From: Candidatus Hermodarchaeota archaeon
Lineage (GTDB): Archaea > Asgardarchaeota > Lokiarchaeia > Sigyniarchaeales > SOKP01
Assembly (NCBI GenBank): GCA_048885925.1
Contig: JBHLLG010000007.1
Span: 22,806 to 86,805 of the forward strand
Direction of reading: 5' to 3'
DNA: 64,000 nucleotides
Under the pieces are notes generated by a model. It saw nothing but the letters and a program-made list of their open reading frames with translations, made no database searches and was not told the DNA's origin. Position numbers and translations under genes: made by a program. Shown here one piece after another: positions 53,014 through 63,433 of the stretch; positions within the stretch are counted from its first letter, which is position 1, and each line of letters opens with the position of its first letter.

Positions 53014-55404
53014 TTGAATAATAAAAAAACATTTGAAATTAATATTTCTGGAATTGTACAAGGAGTAGGCTTTAGACCATTTCTATTTAATTTAGCAAAA
53101 AATTTTGGACTAAAAGGATATCTCCTTAATCGCGGTAATGCAGGTGTCAGATTAGTATTACAAGGAAATACAAAAAATATTGATCAATTCATCATTGATT
53201 TGAAAAAGAAAAAGCCAAGTATATCTTTTATAGAAAATATTGAAATTAAAAAATTAAATATTGAAGAGAATTATCTAAGCCTTGAAATCAAAAATAGTGA
53301 ATATGGAAGAGGTATTAGTTTAACATTACCTCCAGATATATCGATTTGTGATCAATGTCTAGATGATATGAGAAATTCCCATTTAGAAAGATATTTTCAA
53401 TATCCTTTTATTGCATGTGCAGAGTGTGGTCCAAGGTTCACTACAGTATCTAAACTACCATATGATAGAATAAGAACAACTATGAATGAGTTCCCTTTAT
53501 GCAATAGTTGTATGAAGGAATATTCTAATTTTGATAATCGGCGATTTCATGCTCAAACGTTTGCTTGTTCTCAATGTGGTCCAAATTATGTACTTTATGA
53601 TAAAAATAAGGTGATTATTCAGAAGGATTCAATAATTGGCTATATAATTGAAACTGCGAAAAGAATTAATTCCGGTGAAGTTGCTGCAGTTAAGGGTATC
53701 GGTGGAGTTCATCTCGTTTGCCGAGCAGATGATGACGATATAGTTAAGAATCTTCGCAACCGTAAAGGAGGAAGAAAATTTAAACCATTTGCATTAATGA
53801 TTCCAAATTTAGAAGTTATAGAAAATAATTTCAAGATTTCTCAGAAAGAAAAAGAAATATTAACATCTTATAGACGACCTATTGTTCTTCTAGAAAGAAA
53901 AAGTAATCTCAATTCAGAAAAAATAAGTAATTTAATCGCTCCTGGACTAAATAATGTTGGAGTTATGCTACCTTATACAGGAATACATCATCTTCTTTTT
54001 AATTATATTGGAGATAAACCCCTTATTTACACAAGTGGAAATAGATCAAATGTTCCAATGGCCATAGAGAATGAAATAATTTTTGAACAATTAAAAGATT
54101 TAGCGGACATTTTTTTACTTCATAATAGGTCAATTTATCAAAGAATTGATGATAGTGTATTAAGAATCCATAATAATAGAATCAAATTAATACGAAGATC
54201 AAGAGGATATGTACCAGAATATTTACCACTTCCATTTAAGGTGGATTTACCTGGAGCCATTTCAACAGGACCTCTATTAACAACTACAGGAGCAATTCTA
54301 AGAAGAAATCGAATATTTCCAACGCAACATATAGGGAATATAACAAATTTGGAAACATATGAATTTTTAAAAGATGCTATCTTTCATATGAAAAATCTTC
54401 TACTAATAGAGGATTCTGAAATTTCCTTTATAGCTACTGATGCTCATCCAACATTTATTAGCACAAAATTAGGAAAAGATCTTTCTGGAATTTACAATTG
54501 CAAAATGTATCAAATTCAACACCATTTTGCTCATATCTTAGGATTAATGGCTGAAAATAAAATTGGAAAAGAAGAAGCTGTAGTTGGAATCAGTACGGAT
54601 GGAGTTGGTTATGGTGATGATGGTAATGTCTGGGGTGGAGAAATATTATTAGTCTCTTATAATGATTATAAACGTCTTAGTCATTTAGAATATCAACCAA
54701 TGATTGGAGGGGATCGTTGTACAAAATATCCCGCTCGAATGTTTATTTCTATTATTTTAAAGTCTTTGGGAGTTGAAGAGGCTTCAAAAATCCTCAAAAA
54801 TTATAATTTAGAGAAAGATTTAGAATATGGAAAGGTTGAATTAAATACAATTATTTCCCAATTTGAAAGAACTAAAAATCAATTACCTTCTGAAAATACT
54901 CCATTAACAAGTTCTACTGGTAGAATTTTCGATACAGTTTCTTATATGTTGGGAGTGTCAAATCTTAAAACATATAGGGGTGAACCTGCAATGAGACTTG
55001 AAGGATTAGCTTCTCAAGGAAATCCAAATAACGTACCATTATCAATAACCTCTTTTAAAAAAGATGGGATCTACATAATTGATACGTCCCAGTTAATTCT
55101 TGACATTTTATCTTTATTAAAAAGAAATAAAAATAAAAAAGCAGATATTGCTGCAAAGTTTCAAGTTGAACTGGCTAATATTTTTGCAGAAATAGCATTG
55201 AGCATCGCTAGAGAAAATGATATTACAAAAATTGGTTTAAGTGGAGGAGTTGCATATAATTATTCCTTTTCAAATGCGATTAAAATAAAAGTAAATCAAG
55301 CGGGATTTACATTTCTTGAACATGAATTTGTGCCTCCTGGTGATGCAGGTATAAGTATTGGTCAATTAATTGGAGGTTTATTTAAATTTCTAAATGAATT
55401 TTAA
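53014..55404 (+). CDS. hypF: Carbamoyltransferase HypF
   Basis: GIVQGVGFRPF, two Zn-finger CxxC pairs, QHHFAH, DGVGYG, PPGDAGISIGQ. Confidence 0.95.
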   Translation: MNNKKTFEINISGIVQGVGFRPFLFNLAKNFGLKGYLLNRGNAGVRLVLQGNTKNIDQFIIDLKKKKPSISFIENIEIKKLNIEENYLSLEIKNSEYGRGISLTLPPDISICDQCLDDMRNSHLERYFQYPFIACAECGPRFTTVSKLPYDRIRTTMNEFPLCNSCMKEYSNFDNRRFHAQTFACSQCGPNYVLYDKNKVIIQKDSIIGYIIETAKRINSGEVAAVKGIGGVHLVCRADDDDIVKNLRNRKGGRKFKPFALMIPNLEVIENNFKISQKEKEILTSYRRPIVLLERKSNLNSEKISNLIAPGLNNVGVMLPYTGIHHLLFNYIGDKPLIYTSGNRSNVPMAIENEIIFEQLKDLADIFLLHNRSIYQRIDDSVLRIHNNRIKLIRRSRGYVPEYLPLPFKVDLPGAISTGPLLTTTGAILRRNRIFPTQHIGNITNLETYEFLKDAIFHMKNLLLIEDSEISFIATDAHPTFISTKLGKDLSGIYNCKMYQIQHHFAHILGLMAENKIGKEEAVVGISTDGVGYGDDGNVWGGEILLVSYNDYKRLSHLEYQPMIGGDRCTKYPARMFISIILKSLGVEEASKILKNYNLEKDLEYGKVELNTIISQFERTKNQLPSENTPLTSSTGRIFDTVSYMLGVSNLKTYRGEPAMRLEGLASQGNPNNVPLSITSFKKDGIYIIDTSQLILDILSLLKRNKNKKADIAAKFQVELANIFAEIALSIARENDITKIGLSGGVAYNYSFSNAIKIKVNQAGFTFLEHEFVPPGDAGISIGQLIGGLFKFLNEF

Positions 55405-58599: not shown

Positions 58600-59268
58600 G
58601 TGTCTAAAATAAGCAATAATTCAAAATATCTTGCTATAACTATTTTAATAGGTGGAAAAAGTACTCGCTTTGGAAATGATAAGGGTCTTTTTGAGTTGAA
58701 TGGTAAGCCATTAATTTCATATCAACTTGAAACTTTGAGTCAAGGCAATTTTGATATTTTTTTAGTTGCTCATTCTACTAAACAAGTTCAAAATTACATT
58801 AATAATATTGAAATCAATAAAATTTTAGCTTTTGTTATTGATGAATTTGGTATTCTATTTGATTCAACACTTAGAACTCCGTTATTAGGCTTATATTCTG
58901 GATTTAGAGAATTAAATAAATTGGGATATGAAAAATCATTTGTTATACCATGTGATTTGCCGCTTATTCAATTTAATGTTGTAAAATTTATGATTGAACA
59001 ATCCTATGGTTTTGATTGTTGTATTCCATGTTGGAAAAATGGCCTTTTAGAACCTCTTTTTACGGTCTATCCCATAGAAGAGACAATAACTTCTGCTGAA
59101 GAGAATTTTAATAAAAAAGACTATAAATTAGTACATTTATTGAAAGATAAATGGAAAATTAATTACATCTCAATTGAGAAATCAATTATACCATTAGATA
59201 AAGATTTAATTTCATTTATTAATGTAAATGAACAATCAGATTTAGAAAAAATTCAAAAAAAAAAATAA
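58600..59268 (+). CDS. mobA: Molybdenum cofactor guanylyltransferase
   Basis: LIGGKSTRFGNDK, PCDLP, EPL, FINVN..SDL. Confidence 0.88.
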   Translation: MSKISNNSKYLAITILIGGKSTRFGNDKGLFELNGKPLISYQLETLSQGNFDIFLVAHSTKQVQNYINNIEINKILAFVIDEFGILFDSTLRTPLLGLYSGFRELNKLGYEKSFVIPCDLPLIQFNVVKFMIEQSYGFDCCIPCWKNGLLEPLFTVYPIEETITSAEENFNKKDYKLVHLLKDKWKINYISIEKSIIPLDKDLISFINVNEQSDLEKIQKKK

Positions 59269-60993: not shown

Positions 60994-61371
60994 TTAACGT
61001 TCAATTATTAGTTCTTTTACTATATGCTGAATGACGGTTAATAATTCATGCATCTTGAAAGGTTTATCAAGAAAAGCGCAAGCACCGATCGATAAAGCTT
61101 CTTTCTTTACTGTAATATCAGCACTAGCGAAAATGATTTTCTCATTTTGATTAAGTTTTAATATTTCGATCATAGCAGCAAGTCCATTCTTTATTGGCAT
61201 TCGATGATCCATAAGAATTATATCTGGCTTTATTTTGAAATTTCTATACTTGTCAACAGCATCGTTACCATTTATTGCTGTATCTAATATCTCAAAACCA
61301 GCTTCCTTTAATATTAACGCATAAAGCCTCTGAAGTGACTGATCATCATCAACAATGAAAATTGTAGCCAT
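60994..61371 (-). CDS. Stand-alone response regulator receiver (CheY-like)
   Basis: IVDDD, LMDHRMP..NG, SA, KPF. Confidence 0.92.
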   Translation of the reverse strand: MATIFIVDDDQSLQRLYALILKEAGFEILDTAINGNDAVDKYRNFKIKPDIILMDHRMPIKNGLAAMIEILKLNQNEKIIFASADITVKKEALSIGACAFLDKPFKMHELLTVIQHIVKELIIER

Positions 61372-61681: not shown

Positions 61682-63433
61682 ATGAATGATTTAATAATAA
61701 AAAATGGCTTAGTATATGACCCATTAAATAATATCGATGGTGAAAAGAAAGAAATTCATATAAAAGATGGTATTATTACAGAGAAAGTAAATAGTGAAGC
61801 TAAAGTCATAGATGCTTCTGGAATGATCGTAATGCCGGGAGGAGTTGATATCCATTCTCATATAGCAGGAACTAAAGTTAATTTAGGACGTTCGTTTCGA
61901 CCAGATGATAAACTCGAGGAATTCAATGAAAAAAGGACTAAAATAACGCGTAGCGGAACCGGGTGGTCTGTACCCTCGACTTGGGTGACAGGTTATCGTT
62001 ATGCTAGATTAGGATATACCACTGTCGTAGAACCCGCAATGCCATTATTAAAAGCTCGTCATACTCATGAAGAGTTTTTAGTTACTCCTATTATCGATAA
62101 AGCAGCTTTTCCATTGTTCGGAAATAATTGGTTTGTTCTAGAATTCGTTAAAAACAAAGAATTTGATAAATTGGCTGCCTATATTGCATGGATCTTAAAA
62201 GTAACAAAAGGATATGCTGTTAAGGTTGTGAATCCAGGTGGTGTTGAGAATTGGGCATGGGGGAAAAATGTTGATAGCCTAGATTCTACAGTTTTTCATT
62301 TCGAAGTTACTCCAAGAGAAATCTTAGAAAATTTAGCAAAAGTTAGCGAATCTCTTGGATTGCCTCACACGATTCACGTTCATGCCAACAATCTTGGACA
62401 TCCTGGAAATAAAAAGCATACGATTGAAACATTTCAAGCGTTAGAAAAAATCAAGGCGAAAAAAGGACGAAATTCGAATATACATTTAACTCATTGCCAA
62501 TTCAACAGCTATAATGGCACAAATTGGGGTGATTTTGAATCTGGAGCTGCTGATATCGCTGAATATTTAAATTCACATAAACATGTCACCATAGATGCTG
62601 GTCAAGTAGTTTTTGGTAAAAGCGCAACCACCACCATGACTGCGGACGGACCTTGGGTTGAAAGCGAATATCTCGCTTAAACAAGAAAGTTCGCTCTGCA
62701 TCATATTGGTGGTACAAGTGAGTGGGGAGTTCGTCCTGGGATAAAATGGATAAACGGGCAAGTGGAAGGTGAATCTGGCTCAGGGATCGTCCCATATTTC
62801 TTTTCACCAAAAGTGGCTGTTAATGCTATACAATGGGCAATCGGCTTAGAGTTAATGCTGTTAACGAAGAATCCGTGGCAGGTCTTCATGACAACCGATC
62901 ATCCTAATGGAGGGCCCTTTACAAGTTATCCACAAATTGTCCGTTGGCTTATGGATAAGAAATCGAGGGATGATGTCCTTCTAAATCAATGTTCCAAGAA
63001 AGCATCGGAGAAATCACAGTTAAAGGATATCGATCGCGAGCTCACATTGAACGAGATTTGTATTGCTACAAGGGCAGGCACAGCAAAATGTTTAGGAATG
63101 ACAGATCGCGGTCATTTAGGCGTTGGGGCAATTGGAGATGTTGCGATTTATAATTTGGATCCAAACAACATGGATGGACACACAATAGAAAAAGCCTTTT
63201 CCTTAGCCACTTACACTATAAAAGACGGTCAAATTGTAGTCAAAGATGGCGAAATTACAGCAACACCGATGGGCACAACTTTATGTGCTGAAGGAAAAGT
63301 TAAAGATAGTACCATGGAAGCAATGCTTGAAGTAGTCAAAACACATTGGCGTGATCACTACAGCATTAATTTTAATAACTATGATATCGGTAACTATTAT
63401 ACTCCAAAACTGAAAATTATGAATGGTACATAA
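61682..63433 (+). CDS. fwdA: Formylmethanofuran dehydrogenase subunit A; join(61682..62657,62688..63433), 573 aa after removal of a 30-nt intron
   Basis: PGGVDIHSHIAG, KVVNPGG, HVHANNLG, TMTADGP, TTDHPNGGPF, TRAGTAK. The two ORF-track pieces are in the same frame and separated by a single TAA inside the insert. Confidence 0.9.
62658..62687 (+). other. Bulge-helix-bulge (archaeal tRNA-type) intron candidate in fwdA mRNA
   Basis: Exon helix CGGAC/GTTCG, central 4-bp helix CTTG/CAAG, 3-nt bulges GGT and AAA, intron hairpin AAGCGA/TCGCTT. Canonical cuts give TGG GAG TTC (W-E-F). Confidence 0.85.

Follow-up and report, generated by a model that had tools for sequence, protein, structure and literature searches.

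An in-frame stop codon interrupts fwdA, the gene for subunit A of formylmethanofuran dehydrogenase (FwdA), in an Asgard archaeon; is this gene broken, or is the stop removed from its messenger RNA (mRNA) with a short intron? The gene (61682-63433, forward strand) lies in a stretch of 64,000 nucleotides (nt) of contig JBHLLG010000007.1 (assembly GCA_048885925.1), which we call the window and by whose positions the locus is numbered. The source is a metagenome-assembled genome of 181 contigs (95% complete, 4.4% contamination). An earlier note, made from the letters of the window, had proposed that 30 nt including the stop form a bulge-helix-bulge (BHB) intron, real rather than a trace of decay. 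The relatives belong to the Promethearchaeota/Promethearchaeia (Loki type), in agreement with the Asgard host that the note had named, and comparison with them leads us to the same view of the insert. Compensatory changes in the fold and purifying selection on the downstream half argue that the window gene very probably carries a genuine BHB intron in its mRNA, and from them we infer its splicing.

Apart from the TAA, fwdA is a single frame that runs on to a normal stop and reads ...ADGPW VESEYLA (stop) TRK FALHH... across the insert. As had been noted, the two halves share this frame and the unspliced product ends after 332 residues; with 62658-62687 removed, the gene has 573 codons plus a stop, the length of its orthologues. 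The FwdA profile TIGR03121 matches the upstream half with 475.4 bits (residues 4-324) and the downstream half with 284.7 bits (profile positions 331-554), so that the halves are consecutive parts of the profile. The six-frame match over the whole gene, with one internal TAA, reaches 753.4 bits, above the curated cut-off of 392.75 bits. The Pfam domain Amidohydro_3 is found at 1-291 and 306-472. The features of the locus are collected in Table 1.

Table 1. Coding parts of the fwdA locus and elements of the predicted BHB fold, in window positions.
Feature	Positions	Strand	Description
fwdA exon 1	61682..62657	+	325 codons + G of Glu codon; ends ...ADGPW; residues 4-325 on TIGR03121/NF042911 profile positions 2-323
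Candidate 30-nt BHB mini-intron	62658..62687	+	missing in 30 of 30 relatives first compared; sole excision giving Trp-Glu-Phe
In-frame TAA within candidate intron	62678..62680	+	unspliced product stops at 332 residues
fwdA exon 2	62688..63433	+	AG of Glu codon, 247 codons, stop; open reading frame intact
Exon-exon helix h, 5' strand	62636..62651	+	pairs with 62689-62704; C62640 bulged
Central helix H, 5' (exon) strand, CUUG	62652..62655	+	pairs with 62682-62685
5' 3-nt bulge GGU	62656..62658	+	predicted cut after 62657
Intron helix h' and loop	62659..62681	+	U62659-A62681, 2x2 internal loop, 6-bp stem 62662-62667/62673-62678, loop 62668-62672
Central helix H, 3' (intron) strand, CAAG	62682..62685	+	
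3' 3-nt bulge AAA	62686..62688	+	predicted cut after 62687
Exon-exon helix h, 3' strand	62689..62704	+	C62694 bulged

Borders and fold of the insert

At the site of the insert, relatives read TGG GAR TTY; in the window, 30 additional bases separate the G of the Glu codon from its AG. DGPW-E-[FYH] is read in 30 of 30 relatives in protein and codon alignments, all of them without the insert. Moved by one base in either direction, the excision would produce Lys, Val or a stop, so that the borders are set by homology at 62658-62687. They coincide with cuts after the second base of each bulge of the predicted fold, and the archaeal cleavage rule for BHB motifs, as given in the portions of PMC2738675 used here, places the cut between the second and third bulge residues. 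The agreement of protein-derived and structure-derived borders, on which the earlier note had built its case, thus stands.

The Glu, which the note had called typical of FwdA at this position, occurs in 85 of 86 distinct intronless homologues, the exception being a Gln (L035). Eleven insert-bearing copies, from six genomes and five metagenome contigs described below, could be compared with them. The spliced reading is Trp-Glu-Phe in all 11, while the in-frame codon that unspliced RNA would present at the Glu site is AAG, CAG or GAG (Lys, Gln or Glu). The middle base of the 3' bulge varies accordingly between A, C and G; since such variation would give K, Q or E in frame, this base is free of coding constraint. 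The ten residues nominally encoded by the insert are unrelated between sequence types.

These codons bear on a ribosomal explanation, in which the insert stays in the mRNA and is dealt with during translation, either by readthrough of the stop with insertion of ten residues or by bypassing over the hairpin. The insert is indeed short (30 nt), in frame, hairpin-forming and furnished with a stop, as bypass elements are, and some related inserts are free of stops (a second insert in G143 and ferredoxin site A). However, unspliced RNA cannot regenerate the Glu codon in 10 of the 11 copies (the window reads AAG), and readthrough would insert unrelated peptides and put Lys or Gln in place of a near-invariant Glu. 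Neither the window nor the other 10 copies have matched codons for take-off and landing; the resumed frame would start with AAG, CAG or GAG. Moreover, the inserts in cooS and a ferredoxin gene (see below) are 32 nt long and shift the frame, and covariation between exons and between exon and intron with exact BHB geometry would be needless for bypassing. We therefore consider readthrough or bypassing highly unlikely, and return to a BHB intron as the preferred reading.

Two other kinds of element were set aside. An intein is ruled out by the stop within the insert and by its length of only 30 nt. An insertion resembling a miniature inverted-repeat transposable element, with target duplication, is ruled out because there are no border repeats and no other copies; a search of the own genome found no further copy of the 30-mer at up to 6 mismatches.

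The fold that the earlier note had drawn by hand (a 4-bp helix, two 3-nt bulges, an intron hairpin and an exon-exon helix) was recovered with every pairing present. In the window the central helix has four of four pairs. Of the flanking helices, h is strong (15 of 15 pairs) and h' is relaxed (one U-A pair, a 2x2 loop and 6 bp). The minimum free energy (MFE) of the 81-nt region is -29.7 kcal/mol, compared with -16.4 +/- 2.8 kcal/mol in 200 shuffles (z = -4.7), none of which folds as well. Relaxed BHB forms are reported, in the parts of PMC5829648 cited here, as substrates of EndA, the splicing endonuclease, in its (alpha-beta)2 form. Rfam gave no family match in 62300-63000 at E <= 1.

Distribution, covariation and selection

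A six-frame search of 60 related genomes served as the first comparison. It returned full-length, stop-free fwdA at 30 loci and the window copy as the only full-length match with an internal stop; a partial fwdA (G023:C35), also marked by a stop, carries the same insert. The window match spans 1719 nt against 1689 nt in its genus, exactly 30 nt more. When one genome per species was scanned, 76 of the 80 fwdA loci covered the site, of which three had a 30-nt insert with an in-frame stop and 73 did not. A census of 160 genomes of the class, 123 of them with fwdA above the cut-off, added G143 and the partial G023 copy as carriers. The 30-nt insert is thus present at the identical site, with an in-frame stop, in G110, G023, G118, G142 and G143 beside the window genome. 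Five more copies, all of 30 nt and all with a stop, were found in metagenome contigs with a search pattern that fixed only exon bases and allowed any gap of 12-42 nt.

The insert-bearing copies come from several unrelated assemblies, which bears on an artefact of assembly or binning that would make the 30 nt foreign to the DNA of the organism. The fragmented and slightly contaminated source genome speaks for such an artefact. On the other side, public run X1 yields a 714-nt Logan contig that matches 62558-63271 without differences or gaps at a depth of 32.6, with no joint reported. Taken alone this contig is weak support for the insert as true DNA, since the genome may itself stem from the sample of X1. 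Other genomes, and metagenome contigs from other projects, nevertheless carry homologous inserts, and so the insert, as far as contigs can tell, is not an assembly error; we regard the probability of an artefact as negligible.

The distribution was mapped on a FwdA tree (92 distinct rows, IQ-TREE quick search, LG+G4), which is a protein tree and not a species tree. Three intron copies of genus g28 fall in a four-row clade with 100% support; from the fourth row, L070, the intron is precisely absent. The copies of G142 and G143 are sisters in a clade with 100% support in the Shimodaira-Hasegawa-like approximate likelihood ratio test. The three copies of genus g1 lie dispersed in a 33-row clade. 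In the metagenome copy mgL122, an intron core like that of g1 stands in an exon context like that of g28. Such a patchy distribution would imply repeated gain, by spread between alleles, and/or precise loss.

In the same tree, the fwdA of several contigs labelled as Nanopelagicaceae bacterium (Actinomycetota), Thorarchaeota, Odinarchaeota or Hodarchaeota (L065, L036, L044, L039 and others) is nested in the Promethearchaeia clade. These records are probably mis-binned or mislabelled.

Covariation was counted over the 11 copies and 28 pairs against 500 shuffles, none of which reached the observed value in any of three measures. In the proposed BHB fold 93.2% of cells are paired (84.0 +/- 1.2% in shuffles), 11 of the 28 pairs show changes on both sides, and 31 cells are changed on both sides (11.2 in shuffles). 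When partners are slid by 1-3 columns, only 25-44% are paired. In the intron hairpin each of the nine pairs is changed on both sides, and the central helix is 97.7% paired. Its second pair (column 18/49), which joins the third base of a Pro codon to an intron base, is U-A in six copies, A-U in four and U.U in one. Within the exon-exon helix, the second base of an Ala/Gly codon pairs with the third base of a Leu codon as C-G in five copies, G-C in four and G-U in one, and is unpaired in one. RNAalifold, given no structure, recovered the outer helix, the 4-bp helix, the hairpin with its 6-bp stem and the 3-nt 3' bulge, and for G142, G143 and mgL122 the single-sequence MFE structure is an exact canonical BHB. 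An alignment of Asgard fwdA genes, to which the note had pointed for presence or absence of the insert and for covariation, thus reveals a patchy insert with compensatory changes.

The surrounding exons differ as well. The exon-exon helix has 13-15 of 15 pairs in the 11 intron-bearing copies, compared with 7-13 (mean 10.8) in 86 intronless ones. The Glu codon is GAG, which places a paired G beside the bulge, in 6 of 6 genome-derived intron-bearing copies and in 34 of 86 intronless ones. A latent hairpin is present in the coding sequence of all relatives and may be the reason why this site accepts an intron.

In all six intron-bearing genomes, the 246-247 codons after the stop are intact. The proportions of nonsynonymous and synonymous sites that differ (pN and pS) between exon 2 of the window and of G110 are 0.10 and 0.74, and the ratio of the corresponding substitution rates (dN/dS) downstream is 0.01-0.04 where computable. 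Between the downstream halves of G142 and G143, pS is 0.75 and pN 0.053, and their introns differ at 3 of 30 bases. The intron has therefore been kept through a long divergence, with exon 2 under purifying selection and the intron itself constrained.

These figures have to be set against the proposal that a recent 30-nt insertion killed fwdA and that the hairpin is merely incidental to what was inserted. The in-frame stop would indeed truncate the protein at 332 residues, and the genome has a possible substitute: on contig C11, FwdB (344.9 bits, above cut-off) is directly followed by a second, divergent FwdA-like gene (295 bits, below cut-off; C11:41256-42530 and C11:42942-44552 for the two genes) that could cover the function. 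Broken fwdA also occurs in the family: the copy of G063 (G063:C164, L118) has two in-frame stops, TAG and TAA, that arose by substitution and add no length, and it looks like an ordinary pseudogene or a product of sequencing errors, with no intron. A recent lesion is, however, at odds with an insert that persists in otherwise intact genes of six genomes and five metagenome contigs, with the low downstream dN/dS and the compensatory changes that keep the fold, and with an intron that evolves far more slowly between G142 and G143 than synonymous sites do. A pseudogene is therefore very improbable. The suggestion that a C1-pathway enzyme would depend on splicing holds in so far as unspliced RNA would yield only the truncation, but it is qualified by the FwdA-like gene beside FwdB.

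Two intron-bearing fwdA genes contain a second 30-nt, in-frame insert without a stop and with a relaxed motif. That of G143 (L117) lies at W-A-W-G|K|N-C-E-S; in one excision register it has a 4/4 central helix and a 4-bp intron helix, and the Lys codon is restored. That of metagenome copy L124, at W-G-A-K|P-G-V-K-W, includes a tandem repeat of 9 nt and could be a simple duplication.

The window fwdA sits outside any fwd operon, alone beside a response-regulator gene and a MobA-like gene. The former (60994-61371, reverse strand) is immediately upstream; a few kilobases upstream are also HypF (hydrogenase maturation, 53014-55404) and the MobA-like nucleotidyltransferase (molybdenum/tungsten cofactor, 58600-59268). 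No FwdC (TIGR03122) was found in this 95% complete genome.

Splicing machinery, further inserts and the weight of the evidence

The genome encodes enzymes that could process such an intron. One 198-residue open reading frame on C22 (PF01974 and PF02778) is an EndA catalytic subunit, whose nearest PDB chains, 3p1z_B and 3ajv_B (E = 5.5e-38), are transfer RNA (tRNA)-splicing endonucleases, and the ligase RtcB is represented by a PF01139 match on C12. Asgard EndA is reported, in the portions of PMC5829648 cited here, to belong to the (alpha-beta)2 class, with a loop that gives broad specificity. ARAGORN, whose intron calls are noisy, called introns at varied positions in 19 of 31 tRNA genes, including a tRNA-Pro with a 1335-nt intron and a tRNA-Met with a 146-nt intron (e.g. 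C8:82388-83811; C4:22663-22904). The count is in line with the heavily interrupted Asgard tRNA genes described in the parts of bioRxiv 10.64898/2026.10.13.758758 used here.

We propose the following course of events. In the folded transcript, exon 1 and exon 2 would pair in the outer helix, and four exon bases would pair with four intron bases, so that both splice sites would be presented in 3-nt bulges on opposite strands. EndA would cut after the second base of each bulge and RtcB would join the exons, G and AG forming the Glu codon of a 573-residue FwdA; we infer that cleavage and ligation fall to these two enzymes. The 30-nt intron would be released, probably as a circle, and unspliced RNA would give the 332-residue truncation.

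The same motif might instead be cut by EndA mainly as a processing or regulatory site, with the transcript being split, destabilised or conditionally spliced, and no constitutive intron. BHB motifs also serve in ribosomal RNA processing, and archaeal translation can start on nascent RNA, so that unspliced RNA would be translatable up to the stop. Exon 2, on the other hand, has no nearby start codon (the first, GTG at 62762, is 25 codons in), and the residues just past the junction are conserved in relatives. That the codon is restored exactly in 11 of 11 copies is an outcome for which ligation, beyond mere cleavage, would select. We assign very little probability to a processing site, and hold to an intron that would be excised and whose exons would be joined.

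The earlier note had further expected that other 'split' Asgard genes hide such introns, and two were found in this genome. In cooS, the gene for the catalytic subunit of anaerobic CO dehydrogenase, a 32-nt insert (C4:38336-38367, forward strand; L163:1937-1968) has a near-perfect BHB motif. The upstream reading frame corresponds to positions 1-546 of TIGR01702 and the downstream one to 547-621, and the BHB-predicted excision joins positions 546 and 547. A 32-nt insert at the same site is found in G087, of another genus, where the hairpin shows a compensatory change, and in a more relaxed form in G096.

A gene for a 4Fe-4S ferredoxin (HybA/DmsB/CooF-like) carries a 32-nt BHB insert in phase 2 that shifts the frame (C31:18957-18988, reverse strand; L127:1958-1989). 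Its excision restores CxxCxxCxxxC and the 185-residue length of about 100 orthologues. This intron is common to G096, and G023 and G016 carry a different 32-nt intron displaced by one base.

In G023 (L159) and G096 (L160) the ferredoxin gene has an extra 30-nt, in-frame and stop-free insert in the first cluster motif, between C-E-T and C-E-S. Its motif is relaxed, with 4/4 and 3/4 pairs in the central helix and a weak exon helix. There are therefore apparently two introns in one small gene.

From these cases we tentatively speculate, at somewhat less than even odds, that BHB mini-introns of 30-32 nt form a population in Promethearchaeia and have repeatedly entered the mRNAs of genes of C1 and energy metabolism (fwdA, cooS and the CooF/HybA-like ferredoxin). 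Single genes would offer them several sites, and they would pass between alleles that belong to different genera. Introns would here be caught in the act of colonising coding genes along a non-spliceosomal route, with enzyme yield tied to the rate of splicing. Because archaeal translation can start on nascent RNA, and given the in-frame stops and frameshifts, yield would depend on that rate, which would make splicing a possible control point.

Several observations weigh against a spliced intron, or against the reach of the evidence for it. In the window, h' begins beside the 5' bulge with a single U-A pair, after which comes a 2x2 internal loop. Because the intron helix is interrupted there, the strict BHB fold of the 69-nt segment (-22.1 kcal/mol) lies 2.6 kcal/mol above the MFE. 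The central helix of metagenome copy mgL125 contains the U.U mismatch. Independent events are fewer than the covariation counts suggest, because the 11 related copies form about 3-4 sequence types. The metagenome search pattern itself fixed some exon bases. On the FwdA tree the distribution requires at least 4-5 gains or losses: the minimum is five, and well-supported branches force at least four. A second (beta) EndA subunit was not found in the genome with PF01974 or PF02778. Contigs of public runs were compared with fwdA at 90% likeness, where presence in an RNA library is no proof of transcription. The sole true RNA run, X20 (share 0.06), contributed two 151-nt contigs (61854-62004 and 62025-62175) that end about 480 nt before the intron. 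Of the other runs, X19, labelled as probably DNA, gave one contig (62231-62466), likewise short of the intron, and X5, from another study, has no cover over 62624-63071.

The genome-wide scan also belongs among these points. It combined BHB geometry with continuity of the reading frame and used slid partners as controls, and the matches showed no excess over them (82 vs 74-95, 2085 vs 2012-2100 and 111 vs 105-127). Since counts equal those of the slid-geometry controls, the BHB motif alone is not diagnostic, and the first filter missed the fwdA intron of the window itself because its h' is relaxed. The three cases taken as real were singled out by motif quality and then by homology, and the scan gives no number of mRNA introns per genome. 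The earlier idea of scanning the genome for BHB motifs was thus borne out for the best-formed matches, which homology supports, and not for the genome-wide count. With these points taken into account, we still consider it very probable that fwdA of the window contains a real BHB intron.

Comparison with known systems

If spliced RNA confirms this reading, Asgard archaea splice mRNAs with the tRNA-splicing machinery; eukaryotes reuse the same enzyme pair for HAC1/XBP1. The fwdA, cooS and ferredoxin genes that are annotated as split or broken would be intact, and reconstructions of the Wood-Ljungdahl pathway in Loki-type archaea would change. The patchy, multi-site distribution would offer a tractable system for the arrival of introns in coding genes and, should the colonisation scenario be true, in the closest prokaryotic relatives of eukaryotes.

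HAC1/XBP1 is itself a case of non-spliceosomal mRNA splicing: a structure-specific endonuclease makes two cuts, both in stem-loops, and the exons are sealed by a ligase of the RtcB type. The candidate fwdA intron would share with it the non-spliceosomal route, ligation of the RtcB type and an intron that alters downstream translation. In contrast, Ire1 is unrelated to EndA, its substrate consists of two 7-nt loops with no BHB, and its splicing is a regulated stress switch. The parallel is one of analogy and not of membership. Bypass elements (T4 gene 60 and the mitochondrial byps) are likewise short, hairpin-forming inserts with a stop in otherwise intact genes. They differ in their matched take-off and landing codons, which are lacking here; the 32-nt relatives of the fwdA insert shift the frame, and BHB geometry with exon-intron covariation is alien to bypassing.

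A closer comparison is offered by the BHB introns of tRNA genes, which are very frequent in some Asgard lineages according to the parts of bioRxiv 10.64898/2026.10.13.758758 used here. They share with the fwdA insert the motif, presumably the enzymes, and repeated, apparently independent gains at sites capable of forming the motif. The difference lies in the host: fwdA is expressed through an mRNA, so that reading frame and coupling to translation matter. In the main text of that preprint 'mRNA', 'coding sequence', 'cbf5' and 'open reading' do not occur, and a search of full texts, outside subscription journals and supplements, found no paper on BHB introns in Asgard mRNAs.

The closest counterpart is the intron in the cbf5 pre-mRNA of Crenarchaeota (Desulfurococcales, Sulfolobales), which, in the portions of PMC2738675 used here, is 16-44 bp long, often has a relaxed motif, is patchily distributed and goes with a heteromeric EndA. 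Both are short introns in a protein gene (16-44 bp there, 30 nt here), too short for a homing enzyme. Both have a BHB-like, often relaxed motif, and the cut between the second and third bulge residues matches the protein-derived borders. Both show patchy gain and loss among relatives and a link to a heteromeric EndA of broad specificity, and in both the gene is routinely mis-annotated as broken or frameshifted.

The differences concern host and evidence. FwdA is a metabolic enzyme whereas cbf5 encodes an RNA-modification enzyme, and the Asgard archaea (Promethearchaeia) are another phylum. At least three genes appear to be interrupted in one genome here, with up to two sites per gene in relatives, while according to the same portions of PMC2738675 no gene besides cbf5 had been confirmed as of 2009. 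Splicing of cbf5 was shown there by complementary DNA, whereas the fwdA intron is known from sequence alone. Judged by these shared features, the putative fwdA intron is the same kind of element as the cbf5 intron, in a new phylum and in new host genes.

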